DNA of 63,626 bases, taken from positions 1 to 63,626 of the IMG/VR virus record IMGVR_UViG_3300045988_147865; one strand, written 5' to 3'. A model generated the notes under the pieces. That model did no database searches. It was given only the letters and a program-made list of their open reading frames with translations, and had not been told where the DNA came from. The position numbers and the translations under genes were made by a program. This document shows, piece by piece, positions 3,311 through 52,368 of this stretch. Each line of letters begins with the position of its first letter. The stretch's first letter is position 1. Source of the DNA: a virus.

Positions 3311-3337
3311 CGTTCCCAGCGATTCTATCGCTGGTCC
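3311..3337 (+). promoter_or_regulatory. Conserved hairpin family, copy a (CGTTCC + 8-bp stem + TCT loop).
   Basis: ccagcgat/TCT/atcgctgg at 3316..3334, preceded by CGTTCC. Same architecture as 11727, 11859 and 31457. Confidence 0.6.
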
Positions 3338-3369
3338 CATAAAAAAAAGTAAAATATCAAAGCAAGAAT

Positions 3370-3853: not shown

Positions 3854-4186
3854 ATGACAAAGGAAGAATATGAAGAAATGCGTAACACCATCGACTCCGT
3901 ACGCGGATACTTCTACTCCATCGAAGAGCTAACCAAGGTCAGAGATCTCGTACAAGAAGTTGATGCATCAAACGACATTACTATACTAGAAAGCCCTGTA
4001 AAGTTTGAAATATTCATCCAGGGAATGTGCAGTGATACAAACGGAGACATCACCAAGTATCTCGATGCAGAAGCAATCAGCTACATCAGAAGTGCCATCC
4101 TCCGAAGATTAAATAGACGTATCGCATTCTTCGAAAATCAGATAGAAAACATTAATTACACCAAACGTAAAACAAAGAAAAAGTAA
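3854..4186 (+). CDS. Hypothetical protein.
   Basis: 110-aa ORF, tightly packed. Confidence 0.55.
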   Translation: MTKEEYEEMRNTIDSVRGYFYSIEELTKVRDLVQEVDASNDITILESPVKFEIFIQGMCSDTNGDITKYLDAEAISYIRSAILRRLNRRIAFFENQIENINYTKRKTKKK

Positions 4187-35001: not shown

Positions 35002-38000
35002 CTACTCCATTCCGTTCAACGTTTTAAGCAGTTCCTTTCTGATCTTCCGAATCTCCACCAGTCTGGCAGCATCGTTCTGACCGTCCATTTGCTTCTTGGC
35101 TTTGTTCATCTTCTTTTTGGCAGCAGAGATAGCCTTTCTAGCCGCAAACAGTCGCTTGTTGGTTTTGCTGTTCTTAAAGGCATTTGCCTTCGCCTTATCA
35201 ACATCCTTCAAACGCTGATACTCCTGATAAGTCTCAATGGTTCCGTTCCAGACGTTCTGTATTCTCCAGTCCTCCGTCACGTCCTCTGCCTTAGCCTTCA
35301 TCAGGTACTTGCTTTCAGCCTTCTCCATTTCCTTCAAGTCTTCATCACCATTCAGATAACCCTGCACCATGTCCAGAGCCTCCTTCTGGGTGAAAGCCTT
35401 GTAGTCACTCTGCGAGAGGAATTTCTTCATCTTCTGGCGCATCTTCTTCTTTTCCGTGATACTCTTGGCAGCATCAAAGCGTTTACTTGCCTCCTGTAAG
35501 GAAGTCACTCCATCGCTCATTTCTGCACTCTCCAGTGCCTTCACCGAACCGATGGCAGCCTTAATCTGAGCCTCTGGGTCGATACCATTGCGCTGGCAGC
35601 TCTGATAGGTCATCACCACGCCCTCCATGTCACCGCTAAGGATAAAGTCCTTGAAGTAACTCTGAGCCTTCCATGGAGAGAAACCCTTGCTAGATGGGAA
35701 GAAGAAATCCACGGCCTTGAACTCCTTGTTCTCCTGGCTCGGAATCAGGAAAGGTGCCCAGTACAAAGCATCCTTATAAAGCAGTCCGATGGTCTTGCCA
35801 TATTTGCGCTGAATCTCCTGATCAGCATGGCTGGCTTGGAAATCGCTCAGATAATTAATATCATCCAGCGTCATTCTTACCATAGGGTTAGCCTTACCTA
35901 TCATTCTCTGAACCATTGGACCAGGGAACTCTAGTTCTCCCTTATGGTTGAATAGGTATTCAGGAACCTCACGGAACTGCTTACCATGTCTCACATACAT
36001 TTCTGTACCATCTTCATATCTGCCTAAGAAGATCTTGCTCTGCTGGCCAAGGCTGTTGCCTCTCATCAGATAGTCATACCATTTCATACCCTCGTCACCA
36101 TAAGCCAGTTCATACATGCTCTTATAGCTAGGGTTGGTCTTCCTGATCTCCTCAGCCTTCTTGCGTTCCTTCTCCTCGTCCATGGCACGGAAGGCAGCAT
36201 TGATGCCATTGGCAATACCCTCATAGAATACCATGAATCCGATACCATAACAGAGGAGTGCAGAAATCTGTCTGCTTCTTCTGCCTTCATCCTCCGGTGT
36301 AAGTTCCTTATGTTTGAGCCTCTTGTAATACTGCTTGAAGTTCTCAAAGGTTGCCTCATTCCAGATAGAACCAAATCCGGTTAATGCCAGGAAGTGTCGA
36401 GTAGTAGAAGCATTCCAGTCTGGAGAAAGAAGAACTCGTCCTGCATAGCGCAAGGTTCGATGGCTGGCTCCCAACACATCCCAGTGCTGCCCACCAAACA
36501 TATCGTTCACAAACTGACCGTCTTCATCTAAAGCACGGTTCAGTTCCTCGGCACTCCATCCCTTCTTCTTGGCACGCTCTTTGGTCTTGTCTGCCCTCAT
36601 ACGATAGGTAGCAAGTTTCAGTCCGTCATGAAGGAAATCCCACAAAGCTACATCCATGCCCTTATTGATGAGCGAAAGCATCTGCGTTGCCACCGTCAAT
36701 GGCATAGAAGCCTTAGCCACCGTTCCGGAAATTCCATTTCCGTCCTTCAACTTCTCCTGCACCTTCATCATCGCATTGCGCATGTTGTCAAACATGTTCT
36801 GTACATCCGCTGCAGCATAGTCGTTGGTCGCTCCGAACTTCACCAGATGGGAAGCAGCCTCTTGAAAATCCTCAGGATTGGCAAAACAAGGCAACTCATG
36901 GTTCTTGGCTGTATCTGCAAAGATATACTTCATAAAGTTGGCCATGGCCTTCTTAGGACCAAACTCCACCATATTCTGCACCATATAGACCTCGGTCAAG
37001 GCTCCGGCATGGAAACCGCTAAAGCCCAGCTCCAACTTCTTGGCACTAGAAGCTAGCGTATCAAAGGTTTTCCAGAATGGGGATGACTGATAGGTATCAA
37101 ACACAACACCAAATCTGTCACCGGCACTAGCCTCACTATAGATCACCTTCTCCTTGCCGGTGATAGGATTCTTCACCTTCACCTGCTTAGGCGATACATT
37201 ATACACCCACACAGGTCCCACGCCCGGAATCTCAAAGTACTTATATTGCTCCAAATTGAATGGAGCAGAAGAAGAAAGTAGTGGATCAGTAGAAATTACC
37301 TCTCCTTTTTCATTCCGCTCTATCACGTTCAGTCCGGTCAACTCCTGCAACATGGTCTTGTTAGCCCAAGCCTCAATATTACTTCTGCTGTAGTAGGCCA
37401 TCATTTTCGTTATGTCGGTAGTCTTTGGCACAAGTCCGGCATAAATACCTTCCATTAATGTGCTGATGGTTCTCGGCTTCTCATTCGGACTCTTCGTGCG
37501 CTGTCTGTTCTCCACAAAGGTAGCATACGCCTCAGGATCAGATTTCTCTTTATCCCAAATATGATTTACGTAGTCAACATTATAACCAGTGCCAGCTTTC
37601 AAAGCATGATTATCCATTAACCAGTCGTAGGTATAGTTATACCAGTCACGGATGGAATCAATGGCAGCCTGCATTTCAGGAGAAAGTTCCTTATAATTGA
37701 TACGTCCTGGCACTACCCTCTCTTTTACGAGTTTCAAAACATGTTTACTGAGGATGTCCGTTCCATCACATGGAACAAAACCTTCTTCGCCTTGGTGATT
37801 GGCATTGATAGCCTGTGCCATCTTGCTTGCCACCTCGCTCACAGCCTTAGGATCATCGTATACCTCTATCTCCTTGCCTTTTTTAATCTCTATATGCTTC
37901 TTTGCTGTCTCGGTAATCAAGTCTGTCACGTATGGCTGGATAGCCTCAACATCAGATGGCTGGATATGGATATGTCCCTTATCAAAGACACCAGTGGCAT

Positions 38001-41000
38001 TCAGATTGTGCGCCATGTCACGCAAACGTCTAGGAGCCTCTATTATATAAGGTATAGTCTCAGCCAGTTTTTCTGCCCGGTTTTTCTTTCCCTTGTAATC
38101 AGATAGCAACTTGTCAAAAACACCGCTATCAGCCATCTTCTCGATTCTGTTCTTCACATCATTGATATAGATAGCATCATCAGCACTAGCCTCCTCCATA
38201 TTCTTTCTACGATGGATAACCGCATGCTTCACAGTCTTTGCTGCACCTTCCTTGCTCACATCAGTACTGGTCACTTCTGCCAAATCCTGCATCACTTGCT
38301 GCTCCAGTGCATCAGCCTTCGGATTGGTCTCTGCTGGGTAAATCTTACCCTCATACAAGTCCAGATCGGCTTGTTGCTGCTCCAGCAGATCATGTTTGAC
38401 CAGCCAGTCCTCATACTTGCGTTTCACCTCCTCCTGCTTTTTCTTTTCGAAGGCAAACATATCTGGCAAAGGGTCTTCCTGGTCCTTCATGGCTGCCTGC
38501 CATTTCTCATATTCATGAATACGATTCATGTAGGCATCATCCTCTTCACCTTCCATTCGGATAGGCATACCAGTAGGTTCCTCGCCAACAAGGTGGTGGC
38601 GTTCACGCCAGTCTTTATTGAGCTTTGCCCATTCCTTCTTACCTGCTTCATCCTTATCAATATCGTAGAACATTGGAGGCTCTGGGTTCTCTTTATCCTC
38701 GCGTGCATTCTGCCATTTGCGCCACTCCTGTACACGTTTCATGTACTGAATAGTGCTTTCGCCCTTCTTCTGTCTCGGCTTGCCCTTACCTGCACCATCA
38801 CCCAGCGCATCCTTGATTTCAGCATTGCTAGCCTGCTTCATCATGGCTTCCTGCTTCTCCTGAGGCATTTCGTCCCATACATGGAGAGCCTTGCCAGCCT
38901 TCATCAGGTAGTATCTCAAATCCTTGTCATTGAGAAGTCCCGGCACTCGAACACCCAACTTCTTCAGCAACTTGATAAGGTAATGCTTAATCTTAGTCCA
39001 AAGAGTAAAGTCCTCTGCTGATTTAGGGCCATCCTCTGCCAAATGAGCGATATACTCCTGCGTTCCCACATTCATGCGGTCAGGGTTCTTCCAGTCCGGA
39101 TCATACTTGTTGGCAAAGTCAATAATCTTGCCTCGAACATCCTTACCTACGGAACGATAAACGAAGTTGGCGAACTTTCTCACGCCATCTTCGCCACCAA
39201 GAAGTACTTCCATACCCTCATGGCCTATCTTTTCATGAAGCACCGTTCTCTCAGCCTCGTTGGCATCAGCACAATTAGGCAGATAAACATGCACCGTGTG
39301 TGTAGTAGGGTCATACCAGCCGGTAGCACCATTCTTTACATCACTCAGATAAGCATCTGGAACCTCATCCACAGAAGTGTAAACTGTAGCCTCAGCACCA
39401 CCCAGTTTGTTGGCAGTGTTCACTACCCGGTCACTCACTTGTTTCTGCTTGTCTGCATCCCAGTTGTTCTTGAAGATAGAGCTGCCAAGTCGTGCCAATA
39501 CATTTCTGCCCGACAAGTCATCCTTATTCAGCAGAGGAGCAATCACGCCCTGGGTCAACTGCACCGGAATACCATTGCCAATGATGGTATGTGCCAAAGA
39601 TTCCGTCTTAGGCAATTTATAGTCATCGCCCAGTCCGGTAATCCTAGCCAATACCCTGCCATCTGCACGCAATACCTTTCCACCCGGCATGATGATCACA
39701 TCACCACTCTTGGTTCTCAGCGTAGGCAGAATGTCATCCCCATAGGCATGAGGAATCTTGCCATCGGCATAAGCACTACCCATTACATAAAGAGGCTTCT
39801 CCACCTTCTGCCAGTCGATTCCGTCAGCCTTCAATCTGGCATCCATCCATGGAGCCACACCGCTTTCCTTCACCGTCAGGGTAGGAAGAATATCCTCCAC
39901 AGCCTCTAGCCATCCACCCTTGCGTGGTTGCTTCTTTGGCTTTTCAGGCAGTTCTCCGTCCTTCACGGCTCTAATAATCAGTCGTTCCCTGCTGGTATAG
40001 CCACCATAGTCTGCGGCATTATACACATCAGAATCCCATGTATAGCCATTCTTATCAAGTGTCTTGGTGATAATCTTCATCGCCTCAGAGTCCTTGTAGC
40101 CCTTCACGTTCTCGATAGTCACCACTCGCGGCTTCACGGCATCAATGAACTCGGCAGTACTCTTGGCAGTCTCCTTGTCAAGTTCCACCTCTCCACTATT
40201 ACTTTTGGCCTGCGAATAGTTCTTGCATACAGGCGAAGCATGGAAATACTCTACCTCACCATCAATATGCTTCACCAGTTCCTTCGGATCCACGTCTCTC
40301 ACGTCAGCCGTAACAATATGCTGCCCGAAGTTATTGCGATATACGCCGCTTATCTTCCGGTCATATTCCACAGCCACAACTGGGTCGATGATACCCTTCA
40401 AACCTTCCTCTACCAGTCCACCACCGCTAAAGTAGGTTCCAGCCTTCATCAGAGAATCAGGGTGCTTCTTCAACTTCTGCTGCATGATAGGAGATTTCAC
40501 GATACCCTTACCGCCCCATTCCTTGAAAGCGTCCTTGGTCATTTTCACGTCAACGAACTGAGCCTGAGGAAATTCCTTCTTCAAATCTGCCATTTGCTCC
40601 AGGAACTTCTCCTTAACCTCTGGGTTCTGTCTACCTTGCTCCACGGTCGTGATAGGCACACCAAGTTTGGCAAGCTCTCTCAACTGGTTAGGGGTAACTA
40701 CATTCCAAGGAATAGCCAAGCCTGTACCGCTCAGTTGTGCAGCGATTTTCTCAGCCACCTCCTCGTCAGGCACAATTCTCACTGCCTTTCTCCAACGAGA
40801 TAGCATCACGCTTCTCTGTCTGTCCTTAGGCAGAAGACTGTTCACTGTTCCAGAAGTCCAAGGTACCAAGCCCACAGAGTCCTTTGCTCCCTCGGCATGA
40901 TAACCGCTCGTCTTCTCGCTCTCCGGAATCTCCCATTCCACAACCTTGATGTTACCTCTAGCGTAAGCACCAGAGAATTGGTCGTTCATCACCGAAGTTG

Positions 41001-44000
41001 AAGTGTGCATGTAAGGATTGTAAGCAGCTGGCACAGGACCTTCTCCTGCCCCAGGGTTCTTATCGGTCTTTACAAGTTGGAATTTTCCGTTCTTCACAAG
41101 GTCCGGTCTTTCATCAGCCCCCATCCAGGCACCAATTTCTGTAGCATCGGTACGCTTGCCATCAATGATAGCTGCCATAGGCGAATAGAGCTTGCCATCC
41201 ACCTCCTGCATTCCGCTATACATCCGGAAAGTCTTCTCCTTATTCAGCCTATCCAGTTCCTCCGGCTCAGTCACACGATGGAAGCGAACATCCTGCTTGC
41301 GAGAATTGAAACGCTTAGAAGGAGGAATAACGTCACCATTATCATCATAGGTAACAAGGTCGTTCAACTTTCTATTATTCTTGGCATTCTTGTATTTATA
41401 AGCCTTGCCATCATCAAAGCCAAACTCGTTTGCGTCATTACCATCCCACCACAGTTGATTTGCAGGCACTTCATCCTCAATGATACGATATTTGCCTTCC
41501 AGACGGTTTGTTCCGTGCATTTCGGCATATTTCTTAGAAGGAGTAACCCAGTCACCATTACGTAACTTACCTTCCTTCACGGAAGTAGGAACAGCACGAT
41601 AAACCTTTACCTTAACATCCTTCTCGCCATTCTTAATAGCATCAATAGCTGCATTAATAGCTTTCACTGATTCCAATCCATGAGGAGTGTTCTGAGAATA
41701 ACGCTCAGGGTGAGAGAAGTAATCATCCGGCTGAGGAGTATAGCCCAAGGCAATATCCTCCAGGTTCACATCCGAGCCACTGGATTCCCAATCGTCACGT
41801 CTCGCCTTGTCACTTTCATACCCAGGGTTCCCCGGTGCAGCCCAGGCACCTACACCCTGATATGCGCTTTCGGTATCATCATACCCCTTGCGTCTGGCAG
41901 CCTCATCAAGCATTTCCCTGGCAGTAGCATCATCACCCTTGGCAAGAGCATCCATATACTGCTTGTCAAGTTGATCATCAGGAATCAGAGAAAGTTCCTC
42001 CAGGTGCTTCTGCCGTTTGGCCTCCTCTTCCTCAGCTCTCTTTCTAGCGGCTTCCATGGCGTTACGCTCAGCCTCTACCTGCTTTCTGCGCTCCTCAAGC
42101 ATGGCATCAAGGTCTCCAAAGTTCTCCTTCAAGGCATTATTTACAGGCTTGGTGTACTTAGCTATATCCTTCAAAGAGGAAATGTTATCTTCATTTACCT
42201 GCATCAAGTGACGCCTAATATTGGCTCTGGCACGTGCTGCCTCAGCAGTAGAACCCTTCTTGATAGCATTGGCATACATCGCCACATCAGCCTCATCAAC
42301 CCCAAATTGCTGAGATACAGCCTTTATTTTATCCTCCACAGATAAATTTTCGCCATTTTCCTTGGCGGTTTCAGAATTATTATCTACCTTTGCACGCATA
42401 AAAGCATTTCCATCGGTTTTGCGTGCTCCTTCCGGAGTGTAAGTGTTGCCTTCTGCAACATGGGACGCATCTGATGGATTTGCTTTTCTATCTGAATAGA
42501 AATTCTGAAAATGTTCCTTATTTCCCACAGGTTTTGTTACCACAGTATAAGTAACGCCACTCTCTTTATCTGTATATGAGTATTCTATCGTTCCTTTTTT
42601 ACTAGGTTTGCGAGTAGAAACGTTCAACATTTTTGGAAGTGAAAGAATATCATCAACAGTGATATAATTCTTGTTTACACCAAAGTGACGATATAAGCTA
42701 TGTTTAGTTCCAGCATGATCATCATTTCCCTGTCGCATAACCATAATTCTTTCTGCTCCACCACTAGTAAATGAAAAATCTTTATTATTATCTTTACCAG
42801 AATAAACATCAGCTACAACCTGCTGAGCCTTATCAAGTTCTCGACCTTCAAACTGTGAAGCAACATTCTTCATACGTTTCTTGGTAGTAGAACCCATAAA
42901 CTTGATGTCATCAGCATTCTCAGCCTCATGAAGTTTAGTACGTGGGTCCACCCCATTCGCCAAGTCTCTCAACACAAGGTTACGAATATCCTCCAAGGTC
43001 ATTTTCTTAATGTCCTCAGGCTTCCACTTCGTAAATGTATCAAGAGTCCAATACCAGAATTTTTTCAGCCACTCCTTCAACTTATTGATAACACTCAGTT
43101 CCTTGGCTGTATCAAGCGGATTCTCCTTGATAGCATCCTTAGCCATCTGTTCCAGGATGGCAGCTCCGTCCTCACCGGTCAAACGAGCAAAAGCCTCATC
43201 GCAAATTTGCTCATCTGTCAGATGATTATAGTTAGGATCCTGCTTTAAATCGGCAAATAGCTGGGTCTGCATGATGAGTTTATCACCATGCTCTATAAGT
43301 TCCGGATTCATTTCCTTGGCAGCAGTACGCCAAAGATGCTGATACTCATGAATAGGAGTATTGGGATTCAGATGCTCCTGGTTCAGCACAATCTCCTTGC
43401 CATCAGTGTAGCCATAAACCACACCCTTACCCTTCAAATACTGCACTCCCGGCTCAGCAACAGCCTTCAACTGATTATCTAACTCAACATACTTATGGAA
43501 CAAGTCATCAAGTGTATCTTGATACTTTTCAAAGGATTTATCCCTGTAGTCAGTCCAAACATCATCTGGAATATCGTTCTCAGAAGATAAGCCATGCTGA
43601 TCCATATAGTCCTGCATTAACTGATTTTGATACTCTGCGCGCTCTTTCTTCTTGGCATTATAGGAATCTTCGGTTTCTTTAATCTGCTTCTCTAACTCGA
43701 TTCTCTTATTGAGCAGAGATTCTGCCTTATAAGGGTCAAACTCACTAGGAACATCACCCTTCACGTCCTTGATCTGTTCCTCAAAAGGCTTATTCAGATT
43801 AAATGCCTTGTAGTTTCCAATCTTCCAGGCATTGGTATAGTACTTGCGCCACTTCTCTGCTAAGTCCTTCTTCTCAAAGTACTGAGGAGGTTCGTTCGGA
43901 TTATCCATATTGACGATGGCATACTGCTTAAATTTGTCCGGTCTGTTCTTTGCAGCCCAGTCATAAGCAGCCTTGGCCGCCTCCTTCTGCTCAGGAGTCT

Positions 44001-47000
44001 TGATATAGAAGCGAAGACGAGAATCATTCAAAAGCATTTCTACTGCCAGATTATCCTGCGCCTCAGCCACCTTCTCCATATCCTCATTGCTAACAATCTT
44101 CACCGGGATGCCAGCCTTCTTAAGCATAGCAGATACAGCATCATAAGCCACCCTCTGCGCCTCTGTCAGATTCTCCGGCTTCACCTCCTTCACATCGCGG
44201 TCAAATTTCGCCTGTTCCTTCTGTACCATAGCATACTCCGCAAAAGGCTTAGTCTTGCGGTCAGAAGACTCCAGCCACTTGTCAAAGGTAGCCTTAGGCA
44301 CAGCAGTAACCTTACCAAGTCCCTTCCAGCCTTTAGAGTAGTTGGCAAGATAAGCCTTTGTAGCAGCCTCCTCAGAAGGATAGCCATAAATTACTTTATG
44401 CTCATCAAACTCTCCAGTCTCTGGGTTCACCTGGTCAACAACATAAACGTTACCATCAAAAGTATCAAGGTCTGCGGCATCATTGATGAACATATCAATA
44501 TGGTCACCATCAACGCCAATTTTACCAAGAATATAGCCGTAAGTATCGTGCATGGTCACGCTCCAAGGCTTACCCTGCTCGTCCTTACCGCTGCGAGTCA
44601 CGCCCTTTGGTGTTTCTACGGTATAATCGTAGCCACCAAAGGACAAATGACCTTTTTTGTAATTGCCAGCCTTCTTCTGAGCCTCTGTAGGTTCGGTCTC
44701 AGTTTCGGCAATGGCACTCTTTAAACGTTCTCCGAAGGATGCTTCTTGCGGTAGATGTGAGCCTCGAACAGTTGAGCCTTCGCCACGTTCCAGGCTGCCA
44801 GTCTCTTGTCGCCCTTTGCGTCCGCTATCAGAGCCTTCTCCAATCTCGGACTCAGAAGATGCTTCTCCGTTACCAACTTCTTCGCCTTGGCTATTTCCTT
44901 CATCAACTCCTCTCCGTGAAGAGTCGCTACCCAGGCTACTGCCTCCTCCATATCCTTCATCATTGCTTCTGTCATCATAATCTGCTAATTCTGGTAAAAT
45001 TGATTTGACATATTGTTTATATTCTCGTTCACGATCCTCAATCTCCATCATGCGGTCATATTCTAGCCCATAGATGTGATCAAGTTCGCTTTCAGACGGC
45101 AAAGATAACTCTTTTTCGTGAATATACGATTTATATTTCTCAATTTCTGCCTGTCTTTCGAAAATTTCTCGCTCTTTCTGTGCTTCGTAATACTCTTCCT
45201 CGCTTGAAAGTTCATCTTCTGCAGCAGCTATGCGGTTCATCAGAGCCACATTTCTCATTTCCTTCACGCTGTCATAAGACTTGAACATATCAAGAAGGGC
45301 ATTACGAACATCCTGGTCGGTATATCCCATATCCTGCAAGTTTACAGGAAGGTCATTATATACTCTCACGGCAAATTCGTTAACCGACATACCGGTTCCT
45401 TTCTTGGCAATAAGATAATTGAACTTATTAGAATCATACCCCTTGCCAATACCAAACTTAAAATTGCTCTTGCCCAACTCATATTGAAGAGATTCTGGAT
45501 TCAAGCTATGAGGAAACAAAGACTCTGACACAGCCTCTTCGAGAGTCTGAGGAGTTAAGTCCATCACATCAACGGAAGCATCCTTATATATTTCATGGAT
45601 AGCATTCATATCGTTCTTCTTCAGCGCGTCAGCCACCAATGCCTTGCGTTGCTCTGAAGGTGTCATGCCCAGTTTCTCCATTTCCTGCTTGCTAACTTCC
45701 GTTTTGTAGAGTCTGCTGAGTTTATTAGCCTGAGCCTTCAAACCCTTGGCAGCAACAGACAAATTAGTCTGCAGGGTCTTCAGTTGAGCCTTTGTAGTAT
45801 TCAATTCCATGAGTTGGGTAGGGTCCAGCTCTGTTTCGCCATTGATATACTGATCCAGCATATCATTCACATCATTTATCTTGCGCTCCACATCCTCCTG
45901 GGTATGATAGAGGTCTTTGCGCTGAGAAGTAATATAGTCGGTAGCCTTATCCATAGTTGGATATTGCTTCTTCAATTCTTTATCATCAAGTACGAGTACA
46001 TGGAAATCATCAGATGGCACGATGGCAGATTCATCAACACCAGCCTTCTCTACCTCAGCCTTGCGCTCCTCCTTCATAGCTTTCACCTCATCAGGAGTCA
46101 TCACACTGTTGCGGATAGTATTCCAGTTCTTGAAACGAGCATCAAGATCAGCAATCTGCTCATTAACCAGACTCAACTCATCCTCCACCTTCTTAGCTTT
46201 TTCCGGGTCAAGATCGGCATTGGTATCAAGCCAGTTCTGATATTCAATAGCAGCCTTTCTCTTGTTGGCAAGTTGCGTTTTTATGTCATCACGGCTGCCA
46301 TTAACCAGATTCAAAAGTTTGCCATGGTCTTCCCCAAACTGCTCCTGCAGATACTCAGCCGCCACATTTGGATCTGAATCCTTAGAAGAATAGTCCGGCT
46401 GACCCTCGCTCAGCCCCACGATGCCATTGGCATAACGTTGTTTCTTATCAGCCTCAGCCTGAGAAGCTGCTTTCTGCTCACGTTCAACGTCCTCGGCATC
46501 CAAATGCTCATTAATGGTATTGTCGAGCGCATTCTTGCGCCATGCTGCAAACTCTTCTTTAGACAAAGGAAGATAATCTTTGCCATCAGTAAGTACAATT
46601 TTTCCGTCCTCGCTATATCCGGCAAAGGTCATGTTGACATTAGCATCACCCTCCTCCATGGCAACTGTTACCTGATCATTCGGTTTCAAACCGCTGCCAT
46701 CAAACTGGCTGATAAACTGCTGCGCTCTTGCATTTTTCTGCTGAGTCACCATATTTTCGATGTATTCATCAAGAGAAACAGGAGTGCCCACCTCTCTAAT
46801 CTCGGCATTAGATACCTGCTTAATTGTAGCCTGTCCCTGCTCATCAGGAACGACAACAAAGGCTCCACCATATTCGTTGGCCTTCTTCAGGAACACCTGT
46901 TTTCCACTATCCAAAGTAGCTGGCACGATGTTTCCGTCTTCCGTCTGGTATGGCCAGAGCTGCTGCTTCAACGCCTCACCATAGCCATCATCAGCATGCT

Positions 47001-50000
47001 GCAGAGCATCAATAGCACCCTTCTTGGCATCCATAGCCTCCACATACTTACTGATAGCCTCTTTCTGTGCCGGGGTCAGACTGGCACGCTGAGCCACAAA
47101 CTGCTCCATATCTCTACCCTCATTATAGGCATTGGCTACAATTTCAGGCATCTTCTCGTTATCAGCAAACGCTCGCTTCAAACGTCCTGTTGCCAAATCG
47201 CTATTATAGTCGATAGCCTGCAAAGCCTCAGAATCCCCATTCTTATAGGCATTCTGTCCCATAACAAAAGCATCAGAGTTTGCAACCTTAGGCTCATTTC
47301 CTGCACCCTCAGCAGCAGAGTTTGCAGGGTTTGCAGCAACTTCTGCATCACTCGGAGTTGGTACGGAGTTGGTACGGTCTTGATATGGAGCAGGTTCCTC
47401 TGAAACAGGAGGCTCCTGACCACCAGCTGAACCCTCTACAGAAGCAGGTCCCTCAACAGGAGTAGCTGGTTTTGCGCCATCAACATCGCCCTGCTCTATA
47501 CGTTTTTTATCATCCTCTATCTGCTTCATTTCACGTTTCAGTTCAATGGAATTGTAAAGTTCCTTAAGATAAGACTCAACCAAAGGTGCATATTTCTTAT
47601 CTTTCGACTCCAAAGCCTTACGAAGTGTACCGCGCGCCACGCCATGGGAATCCTCAAACGTGTTGACAAACTCCCTCATCACAGAACTATTCTCCAGAGC
47701 ACTGTCATAATAATGACGGTAGGCGTTAACCTGCTTCTGCTCCTCGTCAGTAAGGATAATACCCTTCTGCTGCTTATCCATGATGTCTTTGATGGAACCA
47801 GCATTCTGATGAAGATAAACCGCTGCCTTATCCTCATCTGTCAATTTCTCACCCATATTGTATTTCTGGGCTGCCTTGTTGTATAAGCCATCAAGATGCT
47901 CCTGCGTAAACTCATTGTGGAACTCACCTTCCAGCACAGAAGCCAAACCAAGAGTCTTCTCATACTCCAGTTTCTTATCTGCCTTCTGAGCCTCATCAAG
48001 AGAAGAAAACTCCTTTCTCTCAACAATACCGCCATCCTTATTTAAGGTTTCGAGATAAACCTTGCCACCATTATCCATTGGCTGCACGATGATGGAATCT
48101 ACAATAGGCGAGAAAGAAGAAGGGCGCTTGCCTTCTACAACTGCCATCATCTTAGCCTTCAACACCTCCGGTACGCTCTTGTCGTTCATCAGGTCCATAT
48201 ACTTCTGGGTTAACTGCCCATCAAGTCGCTGAGCATTCTCACCAACCACAGCATACTCCCCGATGCCCATCTTCTCAAAAGCATCACGAAGACCATCATA
48301 GCCGAATCGTTTCAACTCGGCAATATCCTGATCAGTAAAGTCAAACTTCTTGTTAAACTCCCTCGCATCCTTGAATCGGGCATACTTGCCCACAAAACCA
48401 GGGAAACCAATAGACAAAAGATTAGCACCACTCTCCAAGAAAGTTTCAGCAGCATCCTTGCCGGTAGGCTTGAAATTCGGGTCGTGCGCCATACGCTCCA
48501 ACAACTGCTGACCGGTCATAATACCGGAATCCACAACCTTACCACCAATATCAGCAAGAATATTGGTAGCTAAGCCTCTGCCCTTACCTACCATGTTAGC
48601 GATGGTTCCACCCTGCATGATAGCACCTACGGCACTCTGTTTAGCCACTTCGCCCAAAGTGTTGGCAATAACCTTACCCACAGAAGGATTGTAAATCTTG
48701 CCATTCTCATCGAACTGACCTGTACGATAAATCTCATCAATAGGCTTCGAGATTGCAGACTGACCACCAAAGGTAACAGCACCATGCGCGGCTCCACTCT
48801 TCAAAGCCGCGGCCTTACTCTTACCGATAAGCACCTTGGCAACTCGCTCAGCCACCCTACGCTCCATACCCTTAGCCATGAGGTCACCAGCCAGTTTACC
48901 CTCTGCCTTGGCTACCATGCTCTTAGTCAACTTGCCACCTGCGGCTCCCGGCAGCCAATAACTCCAGGCATCACCTGCAAAGGTCAGAGCACCACTAGCC
49001 ACGTTCTCCCAGAAGCCCGGATGATACTGCTGATTGGCAATATCCTCCAGCCAGTTCTGGTAGTCCGTCTGCATAATCTTGCGAGATACCTTGCCGATGA
49101 TGGTGTTCTCTATACCTGTCTTCAGGATATAGTCTGCACTACCTCTAGGTATCATGCCCTTCACCTCCAACTGATCCAACTCATTCTTGATGGCAGCATT
49201 GATCATTGGCTTGAACTGCTTAGGATCACCACTAAGAGTGCCATTCATGCCATATCGCTGCATCACCTTAAATGCCGCATTGCTCATATCATTCAGGAAC
49301 TCTGGATTCCGGTAGAGCTTGCCAAACTTCTGCTGCAAACCGCTCAGAATCTTCTGAGGGTCGCGTGTCTTGTTTGCCTCAGCGATAGCACCAATAGCAA
49401 AAGGAGAAGCAGCATCCACATACTTAGACTGCTCATTATACTTCGCCATCTGTGCATTAGAAGCCGCCTCTGCGTCCTGAATAGCCTTAGCTACAGATGT
49501 ACTGGTATATTTGCTGATAACGTCAGAAAGCGCATCATTGATGTCCTGATTCATCAGTCTGTCCTGTACATTCTCATCGTGAGAATAGAGGCGTGTAGCA
49601 ATACCCTCAGCGATGTCACGATAGTTCGGACCATACTTGTTAACCAAACTCTGTACCATAGCTGGCTTCAAGAACAGTCCCACATAGTCATCATAGCTGA
49701 TACCCATGTTATATGCCTCCTGCTTCAACTTATCCTGCACGCCATGGCTATACCATTGCGCTTCAATACTCTTCTCTGCATCCTGCACAGTATCATCAGG
49801 CAAAGAAGATACTACCTGGTTGGTAACGTCCATGGCAGAGCGATTGGCATATCTGTGCAAAGCAGGCATCACCATATTCACAGCCTCCTCATTGCTATTG
49901 GCAGTACCATCAGCCAACAAGTCGGCAACCAAATTCTCAAAGTAAGTACTCTGCTTATCCGGTCTCTGCTTCCAGTCCTCAATATAGTTGGCAAGTTTGG

Positions 50001-50559
50001 CATCCATCAACCCCTCATTATTCACCACACCGGTTGGAGTCGTAACAGGAGCCGCCTCTTTAGATTCAGGAGAAGCCGCATTAGCTGATGATGAAGAAGA
50101 AGTTTCTTCCTTCACTGGCATTTCCTCACCTTTTACAACTGGCTGAGGAATCTCTGGTGATGGCTGATATGTTCCGTTGCTCGTCTGAACACCAGTAGGA
50201 ATCATATCCAAAACTTTTGCTATAAGACCAGGAACCTTGTCTGTTGTTTCCTGCTTCTTTGCTGGTTGAGCCACCTGCGGCTTAGTTTCAGTAGAAGCCT
50301 TCTGCTCTACACTCTGAGTCGTAGCAGAAGCATCTACCTGCTTACCACCACCAGAAGTAGATGGAGCTGGCTCCAGCACCATCTTGTCAAAGTCTGCCTG
50401 TGTTCCCACATCATACCCCATGTTCTTGGCCTCATTGTAGTACCAGTTACGATCTTCCTCGTTGTTCAAGTCCTTTTTGAAGTCATCATAGCTACCTACT
50501 TCATAGCCATTGTTCTTGAACTCATTATAAAAATATTGTCTGTCTTGCTCGTCAAACAT
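35002..50559 (-). CDS. Giant polyvalent virion/ejection protein (5,185 aa).
   Basis: Single uninterrupted ORF between the portal block and two further virion-type ORFs. Contains several recognisable enzymatic modules separated by low-complexity linkers (see domain features). Confidence 0.85.
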   Translation of the reverse strand: MFDEQDRQYFYNEFKNNGYEVGSYDDFKKDLNNEEDRNWYYNEAKNMGYDVGTQADFDKMVLEPAPSTSGGGKQVDASATTQSVEQKASTETKPQVAQPAKKQETTDKVPGLIAKVLDMIPTGVQTSNGTYQPSPEIPQPVVKGEEMPVKEETSSSSSANAASPESKEAAPVTTPTGVVNNEGLMDAKLANYIEDWKQRPDKQSTYFENLVADLLADGTANSNEEAVNMVMPALHRYANRSAMDVTNQVVSSLPDDTVQDAEKSIEAQWYSHGVQDKLKQEAYNMGISYDDYVGLFLKPAMVQSLVNKYGPNYRDIAEGIATRLYSHDENVQDRLMNQDINDALSDVISKYTSTSVAKAIQDAEAASNAQMAKYNEQSKYVDAASPFAIGAIAEANKTRDPQKILSGLQQKFGKLYRNPEFLNDMSNAAFKVMQRYGMNGTLSGDPKQFKPMINAAIKNELDQLEVKGMIPRGSADYILKTGIENTIIGKVSRKIMQTDYQNWLEDIANQQYHPGFWENVASGALTFAGDAWSYWLPGAAGGKLTKSMVAKAEGKLAGDLMAKGMERRVAERVAKVLIGKSKAAALKSGAAHGAVTFGGQSAISKPIDEIYRTGQFDENGKIYNPSVGKVIANTLGEVAKQSAVGAIMQGGTIANMVGKGRGLATNILADIGGKVVDSGIMTGQQLLERMAHDPNFKPTGKDAAETFLESGANLLSIGFPGFVGKYARFKDAREFNKKFDFTDQDIAELKRFGYDGLRDAFEKMGIGEYAVVGENAQRLDGQLTQKYMDLMNDKSVPEVLKAKMMAVVEGKRPSSFSPIVDSIIVQPMDNGGKVYLETLNKDGGIVERKEFSSLDEAQKADKKLEYEKTLGLASVLEGEFHNEFTQEHLDGLYNKAAQKYNMGEKLTDEDKAAVYLHQNAGSIKDIMDKQQKGIILTDEEQKQVNAYRHYYDSALENSSVMREFVNTFEDSHGVARGTLRKALESKDKKYAPLVESYLKELYNSIELKREMKQIEDDKKRIEQGDVDGAKPATPVEGPASVEGSAGGQEPPVSEEPAPYQDRTNSVPTPSDAEVAANPANSAAEGAGNEPKVANSDAFVMGQNAYKNGDSEALQAIDYNSDLATGRLKRAFADNEKMPEIVANAYNEGRDMEQFVAQRASLTPAQKEAISKYVEAMDAKKGAIDALQHADDGYGEALKQQLWPYQTEDGNIVPATLDSGKQVFLKKANEYGGAFVVVPDEQGQATIKQVSNAEIREVGTPVSLDEYIENMVTQQKNARAQQFISQFDGSGLKPNDQVTVAMEEGDANVNMTFAGYSEDGKIVLTDGKDYLPLSKEEFAAWRKNALDNTINEHLDAEDVEREQKAASQAEADKKQRYANGIVGLSEGQPDYSSKDSDPNVAAEYLQEQFGEDHGKLLNLVNGSRDDIKTQLANKRKAAIEYQNWLDTNADLDPEKAKKVEDELSLVNEQIADLDARFKNWNTIRNSVMTPDEVKAMKEERKAEVEKAGVDESAIVPSDDFHVLVLDDKELKKQYPTMDKATDYITSQRKDLYHTQEDVERKINDVNDMLDQYINGETELDPTQLMELNTTKAQLKTLQTNLSVAAKGLKAQANKLSRLYKTEVSKQEMEKLGMTPSEQRKALVADALKKNDMNAIHEIYKDASVDVMDLTPQTLEEAVSESLFPHSLNPESLQYELGKSNFKFGIGKGYDSNKFNYLIAKKGTGMSVNEFAVRVYNDLPVNLQDMGYTDQDVRNALLDMFKSYDSVKEMRNVALMNRIAAAEDELSSEEEYYEAQKEREIFERQAEIEKYKSYIHEKELSLPSESELDHIYGLEYDRMMEIEDREREYKQYVKSILPELADYDDRSNDEGYGGGSSLGSDSSRRGVDEGNSQGEEVGNGEASSESEIGEGSDSGRKGRQETGSLERGEGSTVRGSHLPQEASFGERLKSAIAETETEPTEAQKKAGNYKKGHLSFGGYDYTVETPKGVTRSGKDEQGKPWSVTMHDTYGYILGKIGVDGDHIDMFINDAADLDTFDGNVYVVDQVNPETGEFDEHKVIYGYPSEEAATKAYLANYSKGWKGLGKVTAVPKATFDKWLESSDRKTKPFAEYAMVQKEQAKFDRDVKEVKPENLTEAQRVAYDAVSAMLKKAGIPVKIVSNEDMEKVAEAQDNLAVEMLLNDSRLRFYIKTPEQKEAAKAAYDWAAKNRPDKFKQYAIVNMDNPNEPPQYFEKKDLAEKWRKYYTNAWKIGNYKAFNLNKPFEEQIKDVKGDVPSEFDPYKAESLLNKRIELEKQIKETEDSYNAKKKERAEYQNQLMQDYMDQHGLSSENDIPDDVWTDYRDKSFEKYQDTLDDLFHKYVELDNQLKAVAEPGVQYLKGKGVVYGYTDGKEIVLNQEHLNPNTPIHEYQHLWRTAAKEMNPELIEHGDKLIMQTQLFADLKQDPNYNHLTDEQICDEAFARLTGEDGAAILEQMAKDAIKENPLDTAKELSVINKLKEWLKKFWYWTLDTFTKWKPEDIKKMTLEDIRNLVLRDLANGVDPRTKLHEAENADDIKFMGSTTKKRMKNVASQFEGRELDKAQQVVADVYSGKDNNKDFSFTSGGAERIMVMRQGNDDHAGTKHSLYRHFGVNKNYITVDDILSLPKMLNVSTRKPSKKGTIEYSYTDKESGVTYTVVTKPVGNKEHFQNFYSDRKANPSDASHVAEGNTYTPEGARKTDGNAFMRAKVDNNSETAKENGENLSVEDKIKAVSQQFGVDEADVAMYANAIKKGSTAEAARARANIRRHLMQVNEDNISSLKDIAKYTKPVNNALKENFGDLDAMLEERRKQVEAERNAMEAARKRAEEEEAKRQKHLEELSLIPDDQLDKQYMDALAKGDDATAREMLDEAARRKGYDDTESAYQGVGAWAAPGNPGYESDKARRDDWESSGSDVNLEDIALGYTPQPDDYFSHPERYSQNTPHGLESVKAINAAIDAIKNGEKDVKVKVYRAVPTSVKEGKLRNGDWVTPSKKYAEMHGTNRLEGKYRIIEDEVPANQLWWDGNDANEFGFDDGKAYKYKNAKNNRKLNDLVTYDDNGDVIPPSKRFNSRKQDVRFHRVTEPEELDRLNKEKTFRMYSGMQEVDGKLYSPMAAIIDGKRTDATEIGAWMGADERPDLVKNGKFQLVKTDKNPGAGEGPVPAAYNPYMHTSTSVMNDQFSGAYARGNIKVVEWEIPESEKTSGYHAEGAKDSVGLVPWTSGTVNSLLPKDRQRSVMLSRWRKAVRIVPDEEVAEKIAAQLSGTGLAIPWNVVTPNQLRELAKLGVPITTVEQGRQNPEVKEKFLEQMADLKKEFPQAQFVDVKMTKDAFKEWGGKGIVKSPIMQQKLKKHPDSLMKAGTYFSGGGLVEEGLKGIIDPVVAVEYDRKISGVYRNNFGQHIVTADVRDVDPKELVKHIDGEVEYFHASPVCKNYSQAKSNSGEVELDKETAKSTAEFIDAVKPRVVTIENVKGYKDSEAMKIITKTLDKNGYTWDSDVYNAADYGGYTSRERLIIRAVKDGELPEKPKKQPRKGGWLEAVEDILPTLTVKESGVAPWMDARLKADGIDWQKVEKPLYVMGSAYADGKIPHAYGDDILPTLRTKSGDVIIMPGGKVLRADGRVLARITGLGDDYKLPKTESLAHTIIGNGIPVQLTQGVIAPLLNKDDLSGRNVLARLGSSIFKNNWDADKQKQVSDRVVNTANKLGGAEATVYTSVDEVPDAYLSDVKNGATGWYDPTTHTVHVYLPNCADANEAERTVLHEKIGHEGMEVLLGGEDGVRKFANFVYRSVGKDVRGKIIDFANKYDPDWKNPDRMNVGTQEYIAHLAEDGPKSAEDFTLWTKIKHYLIKLLKKLGVRVPGLLNDKDLRYYLMKAGKALHVWDEMPQEKQEAMMKQASNAEIKDALGDGAGKGKPRQKKGESTIQYMKRVQEWRKWQNAREDKENPEPPMFYDIDKDEAGKKEWAKLNKDWRERHHLVGEEPTGMPIRMEGEEDDAYMNRIHEYEKWQAAMKDQEDPLPDMFAFEKKKQEEVKRKYEDWLVKHDLLEQQQADLDLYEGKIYPAETNPKADALEQQVMQDLAEVTSTDVSKEGAAKTVKHAVIHRRKNMEEASADDAIYINDVKNRIEKMADSGVFDKLLSDYKGKKNRAEKLAETIPYIIEAPRRLRDMAHNLNATGVFDKGHIHIQPSDVEAIQPYVTDLITETAKKHIEIKKGKEIEVYDDPKAVSEVASKMAQAINANHQGEEGFVPCDGTDILSKHVLKLVKERVVPGRINYKELSPEMQAAIDSIRDWYNYTYDWLMDNHALKAGTGYNVDYVNHIWDKEKSDPEAYATFVENRQRTKSPNEKPRTISTLMEGIYAGLVPKTTDITKMMAYYSRSNIEAWANKTMLQELTGLNVIERNEKGEVISTDPLLSSSAPFNLEQYKYFEIPGVGPVWVYNVSPKQVKVKNPITGKEKVIYSEASAGDRFGVVFDTYQSSPFWKTFDTLASSAKKLELGFSGFHAGALTEVYMVQNMVEFGPKKAMANFMKYIFADTAKNHELPCFANPEDFQEAASHLVKFGATNDYAAADVQNMFDNMRNAMMKVQEKLKDGNGISGTVAKASMPLTVATQMLSLINKGMDVALWDFLHDGLKLATYRMRADKTKERAKKKGWSAEELNRALDEDGQFVNDMFGGQHWDVLGASHRTLRYAGRVLLSPDWNASTTRHFLALTGFGSIWNEATFENFKQYYKRLKHKELTPEDEGRRSRQISALLCYGIGFMVFYEGIANGINAAFRAMDEEKERKKAEEIRKTNPSYKSMYELAYGDEGMKWYDYLMRGNSLGQQSKIFLGRYEDGTEMYVRHGKQFREVPEYLFNHKGELEFPGPMVQRMIGKANPMVRMTLDDINYLSDFQASHADQEIQRKYGKTIGLLYKDALYWAPFLIPSQENKEFKAVDFFFPSSKGFSPWKAQSYFKDFILSGDMEGVVMTYQSCQRNGIDPEAQIKAAIGSVKALESAEMSDGVTSLQEASKRFDAAKSITEKKKMRQKMKKFLSQSDYKAFTQKEALDMVQGYLNGDEDLKEMEKAESKYLMKAKAEDVTEDWRIQNVWNGTIETYQEYQRLKDVDKAKANAFKNSKTNKRLFAARKAISAAKKKMNKAKKQMDGQNDAARLVEIRKIRKELLKTLNGME
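38945..39335 (-). other. Domain of the giant ORF: zincin-like module 2 (HEKIGHEG), a paralogue of module 1.
   Basis: GWYDPTTHTVHVYLPN...TVLHEKIGHEG ... IAHLAEDG ... IKHYLIKLLKKL, collinear with module 1. Confidence 0.45.
39540..40440 (-). other. Domain of the giant ORF: C5-cytosine DNA methyltransferase.
   Basis: Motif I YFSGGGL (40410-40437), motif IV SPVCKNYS (about 40225-40240), motif VI ENVKG (40105-40113), motif VIII TSRERLI, motif X GNGIPV (about 39566-39583). Confidence 0.8.
43035..43440 (-). other. Domain of the giant ORF: zincin-like module 1 (HEYQH).
   Basis: VVYGYTDGKEIVLNQEHLNPNTPIHEYQHLW ... FARLTGEDG ... KLKEWLKKFW. Confidence 0.5.
44230..44670 (-). other. Domain of the giant ORF: inorganic-pyrophosphatase-like module.
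   Basis: GNYKKGHLSFGGYDYTVETPKG ... YGYILGKIGVDGDHIDMF. DGDxxD resembles the PPase signature. Confidence 0.45.
44700..44990 (-). other. Domain of the giant ORF: S/G/E-rich low-complexity linker.
   Basis: GGGSSLGSDSSRRGVDEGNSQGEEVGNGEASSESEIGEGSDSGRKG... Confidence 0.7.
48430..49020 (-). other. Domain of the giant ORF: Gly/Ala-rich hydrophobic segments.
   Basis: GFWENVASGALTFAGDAWSYWLPGAAGG ... GAAHGAVTFGGQSAI ... AVGAIMQGGTIANMVG. Confidence 0.5.
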
Positions 50560-50635: not shown

Positions 50636-51850
50636 TTAAGGAGGGACTTTACTGCCACCACTACCTTTACGAGAAGGAGGAGTCCGGTCAAACTTCATCT
50701 GAGCCTTAGCCCATCTAGATGCCTGCTGGCGATTCTTCTCATTCGCCCAAGTGCCACCTCGGCCATCATTACCACCGATAGCCATACCATTATTCTTGGC
50801 CCACTGGTTTACATGTTTCTTGAAAACAGGGTCGTTCACATACCTGGTGTTGAAATCATCAGCCTCCTTCTGGTTGGCATTCCTCTGATTCTGTCCCTCT
50901 GTTTGGGAATTAATATGCCTAACTTGCGCTCCCTTAACGTTAACGCTAGCATTATGATCAGCAGCTCCGGCATTGGCATTATTAGTTTGAGCATCAAGTA
51001 ATTTTCCCTTCTTACCTCTCAAAGCATCCTCAGTTTCCTTCTTCGATGTACTAAGTGCAGCCTGTGCAGCAGCAGCATTGCCTCTCTCCTTCTCCGTCTG
51101 AACCTTTACAGGAGTAAGAGCATCCGTCTGATTCTTCTGTGAACCACGATAAGCAGCCAGTGCCTCATTTGCCTTTGCAGCAGCCTCTGCCTGCATCTGT
51201 GCCTGTTTGTCTTTACGGTCCTTATAGATATTCACCATCAACTGGTTATATCCCTTGGCACGAAGAGCCTCAGTAGCCTCTCTTATCTTGCGTTGGCGAT
51301 CAGTAAGTTCTTGTGCAGATTCTATTTTTTGCGATGGAGCACCTTGAACTGTACCAAAGAAGTTACCCAAGTGCATGAAAAGATTTCCCCATTGTTCCCA
51401 TTTGGCTTGATTCTCTGCCTTCTTTTGCAGAGCTGCATTTGCAGCCACAGTTTTATCGGCATCACCAAGTGAAGAAAGCCAAGGCATGAAGGTAGACCAG
51501 TTTCCATCACCATTCTTCTGGTAATCCCTCATAATGTCATAAGGCTTCATCTGCTGCAAGATAGGATTCTGTTCTATCTCGCTATAAGGTCTACTCCAGT
51601 CAATCTTGATACCCTGGTTAGGCTCCACCTTGGTAACTTCCTCGGTTGGCTGCTGGGCAAAAGATTCCTTGCCACCATTCTTAGTAATACCGGTCGTATC
51701 TATGGCTGTACCCTTTCCCGGTTCTGTATTAGTTGTCTGAACTGGTACTGCAAACTCCGGCTTCACCGCATTATCATCAGGGAAATTAGTAACAGGAGTA
51801 ACGGCAGTAGCCGGGCGTTTAGAAGTTAAATCATCTAATGTAAATCCCAT
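50636..51850 (-). CDS. Hypothetical virion/internal protein.
   Basis: 404-aa ORF immediately upstream of the giant ORF. A/Q/K-rich central region. Confidence 0.55.
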   Translation of the reverse strand: MGFTLDDLTSKRPATAVTPVTNFPDDNAVKPEFAVPVQTTNTEPGKGTAIDTTGITKNGGKESFAQQPTEEVTKVEPNQGIKIDWSRPYSEIEQNPILQQMKPYDIMRDYQKNGDGNWSTFMPWLSSLGDADKTVAANAALQKKAENQAKWEQWGNLFMHLGNFFGTVQGAPSQKIESAQELTDRQRKIREATEALRAKGYNQLMVNIYKDRKDKQAQMQAEAAAKANEALAAYRGSQKNQTDALTPVKVQTEKERGNAAAAQAALSTSKKETEDALRGKKGKLLDAQTNNANAGAADHNASVNVKGAQVRHINSQTEGQNQRNANQKEADDFNTRYVNDPVFKKHVNQWAKNNGMAIGGNDGRGGTWANEKNRQQASRWAKAQMKFDRTPPSRKGSGGSKVPP

Positions 51851-51864
51851 AATTACCTCCTTCC

Positions 51865-52368
51865 TTAAATTGGCAATTTACTTGCAGCTCCAGCCAAGCC
51901 ACCAGCTGCATCCGTGATACCCTGAGCAGTCGAAAGAGCCTTCTCCTTCTTGGCTGTGGCGATGTAGTTAGTCATCTGGTCTATCTGCGAATCAGCAGTA
52001 TTCCACACGTTTTCTTTTGTTTGAGCACCTTGTACAGCAGCCTCTTGCATCATCTTACCCACCTGCTCCTGGGCAGCCTGCTTACTCAGCGCAACCGCTT
52101 CATCAGATCCACCACTAACAATATTGGTGTTCTTTGCGGTTGCTGTAGCATTATCCAATACCTTCTGGGCATTGGTCACGGCTACCTGATTCTCCGCTGA
52201 CTGAGTAGGATCCTGATAATACAAGTTGTCACGATGATCCTTCACCTGTTGCATACGGTCTTGAAACATGTTGATATAATCATTATATCCCTTGTTTCTT
52301 GCTTTAGCTGCTAGAGCACCACCTACAGCAGAGGTCAGTCCACCAGCAATACTTCCAATAATTCCCAT
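51865..52368 (-). CDS. Hypothetical virion/internal protein (G/A-rich termini).
   Basis: 167-aa ORF, first gene behind late motif copy 5. Confidence 0.55.
   Translation of the reverse strand: MGIIGSIAGGLTSAVGGALAAKARNKGYNDYINMFQDRMQQVKDHRDNLYYQDPTQSAENQVAVTNAQKVLDNATATAKNTNIVSGGSDEAVALSKQAAQEQVGKMMQEAAVQGAQTKENVWNTADSQIDQMTNYIATAKKEKALSTAQGITDAAGGLAGAASKLPI

Follow-up and report, generated by a model that had tools for sequence, protein, structure and literature searches.

In a 63,626-nt stretch of viral DNA (IMG/VR record IMGVR_UViG_3300045988_147865, positions 1 to 63,626; hereafter the window), which belongs to a temperate, podovirus-type phage of Segatella copri, a single giant open reading frame (ORF) encodes what Iyer et al. 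2017 define as a polyvalent protein. The protein is translated and selected as one chain and comprises a scaffold with at least two slots into which different enzyme payloads have been exchanged. With moderate confidence, we infer that this chain is most likely encapsidated and ejected, delivering exchangeable anti-defence enzymes.

35002..50559, minus strand: giant ORF of 5,185 amino acids (aa) and 15,558 nt, with an ATG start (ORF list and translation)

An earlier, sequence-only reading of the window had reported one uninterrupted 5,185-aa ORF making up ~24% of the genome, and had pointed to population data as the place where stops splitting it might surface. The ORF accounts for 24.5% of the window, and its integrity was surveyed in 87 related loci, the C-terminal part of which is 73-98% identical. 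The frame ran uninterrupted across all available upstream DNA in 85 of these, and 78 held at least 4,450 uninterrupted codons. One of the two exceptions, L061, merely includes the true start of a 4,452-codon gene, leaving L082 as the only interrupted locus: an insertion of ~1.2 kb with an in-frame stop (~440-1650) lies in the linker upstream of the inorganic pyrophosphatase-like domain (InPase). This insertion may represent a further variable slot or an inserted element. The frame was also open across the available sequence of L014, a prophage in a complete S. copri chromosome, and a representative library contains full-length relatives at 89% (5,707 aa) and 73% (5,605 aa) identity. Compared with three relatives, the ratio of non-synonymous to synonymous polymorphism (pN/pS) was far below 1 everywhere (0.02-0.5 per 250-codon segment), except in the segment containing a swapped, non-homologous cassette. 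Based on the open frames across the 87 loci, the full-length relatives and the low pN/pS, we conclude that the giant ORF is translated and selected as one chain. ORFs on the opposite strand within it (e.g. 38212-39021 and 48784-50088) were without support and, because of the strong strand-compositional bias, are taken as by-products of that bias.

These data render it highly improbable that the long ORF is an artefact, be it an assembly chimera or a decaying, untranslated frame. What such an artefact has in its favour comes from relatives in which the gene appears split. The earliest database matches to the C-terminal 1,235 aa were all at most 2,125 aa long and started at internal positions. 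Closer inspection attributed most splits to contig-end fragments, an unrelated start (L007), a scaffold gap of Ns (L008) or 6x coverage (L009, which is in fragments). Stop-codon recoding was ruled out as a cause of fragmentation, the frame being open in the standard code. Genuine frameshifts, however, split the gene inside conserved domains in two places: L003-L005 share a 1-nt deletion (AAGAAAT to AAGAAT) at ~aa 3010 (L003 position ~9836), within a module resembling the C-terminal part of ParB-like proteins, and L006 carries an indel (~9900-10000) directly before the second HExxH motif (HExxGHEG). These are either real split variants or assembly errors.

Two enzyme domains on the chain were recovered at high significance.

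44269..44685, minus strand: InPase-PolyVal domain (type I inorganic pyrophosphatase-like), aa 1959-2097 (PF18823, E 4e-50)
39541..40431, minus strand: C5 cytosine DNA methyltransferase, aa 3377-3673, in slot 2 (PF00145, E 4e-28; TIGR00675)

Both had been anticipated from the letters alone, the former as a pyrophosphatase-like module and the latter as a complete C5-cytosine methyltransferase, and both stand. The InPase matched PF18823 over its full length (profile positions 1-135 of 135) with 169.5 bits against a cut-off of 26.8, and a homologous domain is found at the C-terminus of a phage portal (PDB 9b41_L). The methyltransferase covers positions 7-319 of the 324 in PF00145; motifs I (FSGGGL), IV (SPVCK), VI (ENV), VIII (SRER) and X (GNGIPV) follow in order when aligned to M.HhaI, with the catalytic cysteines of the two enzymes in register. 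To separate scaffold from payload, we compared the protein with 73 close relatives and with 43 distant giants, each ≥3,300 aa long and representing one 50% cluster. Because the methyltransferase was nearly absent from the distant giants (~0-2%), it is a recent, lineage-specific payload. The replication block of a distantly related podovirus, L102, encodes Dam and C5 methyltransferases as genes of their own (22243-23629), which shows that methyltransferases also occur as stand-alone genes in the wider phage group. The domain-by-domain profile scan that the sequence-only reading had suggested thus detected InPase and methyltransferase, while sliding-window Pfam (E ≤ 5) and NCBIfam searches of the giant protein returned nothing besides these two.

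Comparison of relatives revealed where the payloads are exchanged.

42415..42924, minus strand: variable slot 1, aa 2546-2715, in the window a 170-aa cassette with GNDDHAGTKHSLYRH
aa ~3311-3708 of the giant protein: variable slot 2, occupied here by the methyltransferase (census of relatives)

Slot 1, counted in 62 relatives, held the cassette type of the window in 24, PBECR2 in 31 (above the Pfam threshold in P0039 and P0041) and two further types in the other seven. Slot 2, counted in 59, contained the methyltransferase in 37 cases, a Kinase-PolyVal-type cassette in 20 (some cut to ~40 aa) and ART-PolyVal plus LPD3 in two. Among relatives at 80-98% identity, ART-PolyVal plus LPD3 or Kinase-PolyVal replaces the methyltransferase, and PBECR2 or other cassettes occupy slot 1; further variants of the same scaffold carry PBECR5 and LPD23. 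A scaffold with at least two exchangeable payload slots is hence evident. By hhalign, the window-type cassette had no homology to the other cassette types. Its GTKHSLYRH segment had very tentatively been read as a Barnase/EndoU-like nuclease, an assignment that was not supported: the cassette matched no Pfam entry at E < 5 and no PBECR, Barnase or EndoU model, and its hhalign probability against the PBECR2 cassette of the same slot was 0.2%. That it occupies the slot holding PBECR2 or PBECR5 in relatives is a suggestive coincidence.

Taken together, the polyvalent architecture proposed for the protein was confirmed, with a polyvalent-specific InPase and a DNA methyltransferase on the chain itself and ART-PolyVal plus LPD3, Kinase-PolyVal, PBECR2, PBECR5 and LPD23 in relatives. 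The chain combines several unrelated catalytic domains (InPase and C5 methyltransferase, plus two HExxH modules), and its gene adjoins packaging genes, namely those for portal, large terminase subunit (TerL) and capsid protein.

Packaging and ejection of the protein are plausible from genomic context and precedent. Three features bear on this point.

32122..34176, minus strand: P22-like portal gene, directly downstream of the giant ORF (PF16510, E 5e-31; phrog_156)
35005..37689, minus strand: family-defining, all-alpha C-terminal module, core aa 4291-5185, with similarity from ~aa 4100
36190..36267, minus strand: single hydrophobic stretch, aa 4765-4790, in a 52-residue helix (model residues 465-516)

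One line bearing on packaging is the position of the gene beside the portal, within the structural block, which was shared by every relative examined; the succession of giant ORF and portal recurs in L003, L006, L008 and L009, for instance. In distant podoviruses, whose C-terminal module is 22-31% identical, the giant gene closes the structural operon. In L101, an SU10-type adaptor and tail genes lie before it and an M15 endolysin after it; in L102, it comes after a P22 gp10-like gene and itself carries ART-PolyVal. P22 encodes its ejection proteins gp7, gp20 and gp16 at this end-of-operon position. As to precedent, gp47 of phage phi24B is abundant in purified virions by mass spectrometry and absent from the cryo-electron microscopy map, and has been proposed to be an encapsidated ejection protein. 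In Cellulophaga phage phi13:1, gp020, which starts with an InPase domain, was identified as a virion protein by tandem mass spectrometry, and the portal in PDB 9b41 is a further precedent, with an InPase fused to it. Polyvalent proteins with an InPase were predicted by Iyer et al. to be packaged. In the kuravirus PTXU04, a polyvalent protein of 2,198 aa is essential.

The C-terminal module, a conserved region of ~900 aa absent from Pfam, PHROGs and PDB, defines the family. An exhaustive HMMER search with aa 4100-5185 as the query returned 535 clusters at E ≤ 1e-3, of which 179 reached E ≤ 1e-30. The matched region is located at or close to the C-terminus of proteins that often span 4,000-7,483 aa; small family members (1,300-2,300 aa) had no Pfam or PHROG domain. 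AlphaFold2 predicted aa 4291-5185 (49 sequences) to be nearly all helical, with helices exceeding 50 residues (predicted local distance difference test (pLDDT) 76; predicted template modelling score 0.60). In BFVD, the model matched C-terminal chunks of uncultured-phage entries annotated as ‘Large polyvalent protein associated domain-containing protein’ (E 2e-14 to 1e-4, probability 1.0) and, weakly, a cyanopodovirus internal virion protein and ‘Internal virion protein D’ (E 0.05-0.23). The transmembrane-like segments previously suspected in this part of the protein shrank to one stretch inside a long helix of the predicted all-alpha domain, with a marginal Kyte-Doolittle mean of 1.62 (aa 4765-4783).

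The position of the distant homologues, the long helices of this module, the Gly/Ala-rich segments further upstream and the weak BFVD similarity to T7-type internal virion proteins would also fit a chiefly structural ejection or conduit protein. Such a protein would be a fused equivalent of the podovirus internal core or E proteins, with its enzyme domains (e.g. HExxH modules as peptidoglycan peptidases) serving envelope penetration rather than anti-defence, and the same has been proposed for phi24B gp47. We consider this quite unlikely, as methyltransferase, InPase, kinase, ART and PBECR ribonuclease-type cassettes are without a role in envelope penetration, rapid cassette exchange is a signature of conflict effectors, and no solved ejection protein was matched significantly.

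Several observations weigh against an encapsidated and ejected protein. Pfam, PHROG and sliding-window scans revealed no MuF, portal-binding or known internal-virion domain in the giant protein, and at ~580 kDa per copy it would be a heavy load for a capsid with a ~63.6-kb genome. The C-terminal model had no match among PDB folds (best E 0.25), ‘Internal virion protein D’ reached merely E 0.048 with a probability of 0.30 in BFVD, only one marginal hydrophobic helix is present, and a profile comparison of the C-terminal module with the C-terminal end of phi24B gp47 showed no similarity. Two metagenomic lineages are frameshifted in conserved domains, implying an intact chain to be dispensable in some lineages unless the frameshifts are assembly errors. 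Packaging, finally, is argued from context and precedent for this protein and its close relatives alike, and the methyltransferase could work equally well in the producing cell before packaging.

The latter thought leads to a polyvalent multi-enzyme that stays unpackaged and acts in the cytoplasm of the producing cell. There, for instance, progeny DNA would be modified by the methyltransferase ahead of packaging, and the remaining heads would dampen abortive-infection systems late in infection. Replicating DNA is the normal substrate of stand-alone phage C5 methyltransferases, and both the lack of a detected packaging or portal-binding domain and a size that speaks against many copies per capsid would fit. 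We nevertheless regard this as unlikely in light of the location of the gene in the structural block beside the portal, the ejection-protein position of the distant homologues, and the experimental association of related domain families with virions.

If the protein is indeed encapsidated and ejected, it would be made late, packed in the capsid near the portal and, at infection, exit through the tail with the DNA. The scaffold, above all its C-terminal helical module and Gly/Ala-rich N-terminal part, would serve packaging and/or the ejection path across the envelope, and the enzyme heads would be active during the first minutes of infection. Phage DNA might then be shielded from restriction by the methyltransferase, the InPase might hydrolyse pyrophosphate or a nucleotide-type signal, and the HExxH modules may cleave the chain into active pieces. 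Under these premises, the exchange of cassettes between near-identical phages would reflect an arms race with host defences. More tentatively, and with some doubt, we consider a scaffold whose Gly/Ala-rich N-terminal region and all-alpha C-terminal module are themselves the ejection machinery, a single chain replacing the separate internal or E proteins of the P22/T7 type, threading swappable anti-defence enzymes into the cell and having them freed after entry by the HExxH modules. If true, this would constitute an ‘ejectosome-effector fusion’ with plug-in slots, represented by at least 535 protein clusters in phages of Bacteroidales and others.

Further features of the chain are the following.

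50383..50553, minus strand: N-terminal tandem repeat, 2 x ~27 aa (DRxYFYNEFKNNGYEVGxxxDF), aa ~3-29 and 33-59
47860..49242, minus strand: scaffold region N1, aa 440-900, with Gly/Ala-rich amphipathic stretches
45190..47262, minus strand: scaffold region N2, aa 1100-1790, acidic and mostly helical by composition
44710..44982 (aa ~1860-1950), minus strand: acidic S/G/E low-complexity linker, aa ~1800-1950 in all (composition)
41860..42414, minus strand: helical spacer, aa 2716-2900 (AlphaFold2 helices with pLDDT 74-91 at aa 2739-2889, model residues 400-550)
40525..41307, minus strand: module M3, conserved, function unassigned, aa 3085-3345 (AAYNPYxHTS...NDQF...SGY...LSRWxK motifs)
38350..38769, minus strand: ~70-aa tandem repeat, two copies (YMxRxxEWxKWQxAxxDxExPxPxMF), aa ~3931-4000 and 4003-4070

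The two pairs of tandem repeats noticed by eye in the sequence-only reading both withstood comparison with shuffled sequences, with local alignment scores of 88 versus 23±5 for the N-terminal pair and 114 versus 32±6 for the ~70-aa pair. Composition likewise agreed with the Gly/Ala-rich segments (Gly plus Ala 24-33% across aa 501-700) and with the acidic stretch and low-complexity linker described there. Scaffold modules were common to 38-95% of the 43 giant family members: the C-terminal module (from ~aa 4300) to 95%, the ~70-aa repeats to ~65%, N1 to ~60% (21-45% identity), InPase to 58%, N2 to ~50% (25-31% identity) and M3 to ~38%. The linker, a variable region, was present in 78% of relatives in the comparison with close relatives. 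Profile phrog_10089, labelled ‘DarB-like antirestriction’, covers N2 in part. N1 had no PDB or Pfam match, and M3, which has 29 invariant columns at 32-73% identity (alignment A8), matched nothing in PDB, Pfam or cultured phages.

Two other kinds of module lie on the chain.

42925..43467, minus strand: HEYQH module, motif at aa 2404-2408 (alignment A6)
41401..41739, minus strand: ‘ParB C-terminal domain’-type module (YRAV...NEFGF), aa 2941-3053 (phrog_2579, E 6e-20)

Two zincin-like modules had been postulated, the HEYQH module and a second one around HEKIGHEG (aa 3775-3782). The motifs held up, in that the HExxH residues of both are invariant in relatives 25-45% identical, and in alignment A6 the H, E and H as well as a downstream Y, E and G are invariant at 24-35% identity. 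The family assignment goes no further than the motif, as no Pfam or PDB sequence was matched by either module. A model of aa 2340-3350, built with AlphaFold2 from a shallow alignment, had a pLDDT of 51.5, and within the HEYQH module only the helices following the motif were confident. The YRAV...NEFGF segment, in contrast to its earlier, very tentative assignment as ADP-ribosyltransferase (ART)-like, matched a ‘ParB C-terminal domain’ profile and had no ART match in whole-length or sliding-window Pfam searches. In tblastn searches, it aligned with the C-terminal portion of ParB-like proteins from 172 phage records, mycobacteriophages accounting for 159; genuine ART-PolyVal lies elsewhere, in slot 2 of relatives. 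The region from InPase to the ParB-C-like module was matched at 42-50% identity by MT836673.1 (‘Bacteriophage sp.’, human faeces, 9,191 nt, unannotated), the only record from deposited phage collections with these modules besides the Bacteroides temperate phages (TP) described below.

The giant ORF is preceded by two further ORFs.

50636..51850, minus strand: ORF w404, preceding the giant ORF and positioned like gp56 and gp69 of the Bacteroides phages
51865..52368, minus strand: small upstream ORF w167, with a glycine-zipper-like hydrophobic N-terminus (MGIIGSIAGGLTSAVGGALAA...)

Of the late-block placement originally described, between the portal region and two virion-type ORFs, the portal side holds, while the two upstream ORFs are without annotated homologues. 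For w404, there was no Pfam, PHROG or cultured-phage homologue. The product of w167 is 29-39% identical to the same-position ORFs of the Bacteroides phages BF1-TP2 (gp70) and BKO1-TP3 (gp57). Among cultured phages it is conserved only in these two, always two genes upstream of the giant ORF, and may partner with the giant protein. The order of two small ORFs, giant ORF and portal is repeated in relatives and in the cultured Bacteroides phages, where the giant ORFs measure 3,633 and 5,553 aa.

The phage type was identified by the neighbouring genes, which include the P22-like portal, a large terminase, a SU10-type major capsid protein, a GDSL esterase tail fibre and a tyrosine integrase. Close relatives were found in Segatella copri, among them a prophage of strain G8, whose chromosome is complete (NZ_CP146523.1), and further ones in S. 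copri metagenome-assembled genomes, and more than 200 related contigs, many of 59-64 kb, are present in IMG/VR. The window ends (1-600 versus 63027-63626) share no terminal direct repeat or overlap, and our literature search found neither this Segatella phage lineage nor the Bacteroides TP phages described in a paper. Beside the integrase, a 448-aa ORF (55749-57095, minus strand) weakly matches the Mrr_cat restriction-endonuclease domain (E 7.8e-6) and may serve the prophage in defence or exclusion. In a tail-fibre-like protein of 1,233 aa (20830-24531, minus strand), a GDSL-like lipase/acylhydrolase domain (E 4e-28), together with a weak CotH-like match, suggests a receptor-modifying esterase. 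A 956-aa ORF (8844-11714, plus strand) matches phrog_32516, of unknown function (E 9e-115), and is without a Pfam domain.

Few phages of Segatella (Prevotella) copri, a dominant bacterium of the human gut, have been characterised, and the present lineage is abundant. Near-identical phages that differ mainly in the enzymes at two defined slots amount to a natural experiment, and the defence countered by each cassette is therefore directly testable. The unannotated scaffold modules, above all the C-terminal helical module, define a large family with members of up to 7,483 aa. Should the scaffold prove to be an ejection device, its slots could become a platform for delivering cargo proteins in Bacteroidales.

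Among the closest known systems are the polyvalent proteins of Iyer et al. 2017 (PMC5512222). They, too, string unrelated enzymatic heads on one chain encoded beside a portal-terminase module and include the polyvalent-type InPase, and domain mosaicism among orthologues is a hallmark described for them. Their methylase is typically an N6-adenine enzyme accompanied by a superfamily 2 (SF2) helicase and LPD36, in contrast to the C5-type enzyme without helicase seen here. The size of the giant protein, initially thought to be possibly new, is surpassed within its own family, which reaches 7,483 aa, and by a described plasmid polyvalent protein of 12,242 aa.

P1 DarB, which the sequence-only reading had invoked as the classical example, is likewise a large phage protein, expressed late and equipped with a DNA methyltransferase. 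It comes from a myovirus, and its packaging depends on DarA and Hdf. DarB differs in having an EcoKI/TaqI-like N6-adenine methylase, a C-terminal SF2 (SWI2/SNF2) helicase and an N-terminal LPD36, whereas whole-length and sliding-window Pfam scans detected neither helicase nor LPD36 in the giant protein. The ‘DarB-like antirestriction’ PHROG label was reached via the InPase region, the sole similarity being to positions 619-1048 of the 4647 in phrog_10089. The giant protein is thus not a DarB homologue; the comparison holds as an analogy only.

The Stx phage phi24B encodes, in gp47 (2,807 aa; LPD5, LPD1, MuF_C, LPD38), likewise a giant polyvalent protein of a temperate podovirus, yet one with no Pfam domain in common and a gene at the far genome end instead of beside the portal. 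The podovirus internal and ejection proteins (T7 gp14-16, P22 gp7/gp20/gp16 and the N4 virion RNA polymerase) share neither significant sequence nor fold similarity with the giant protein, the BFVD matches being weak, but resemble it in being large and mostly helical; the capsid stores them until they are ejected, either ahead of the DNA or along with it. The Bacteroides temperate phages BKO1-TP3 (gp55, 5,553 aa; PQ571269) and BF1-TP2 (gp68, 3,633 aa; PQ571263) are similar in phage type and genome size and have the same arrangement of a small Gly-zipper ORF, a second ORF, the giant ORF and a P22-like portal. Their giant proteins differ in showing essentially no blastp similarity outside two modules, with the C-terminal module undetected. 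Set against curated knowledge of polyvalent proteins, what is new here is a clean two-slot cassette system in a natural population and a C5 methyltransferase as a polyvalent payload.

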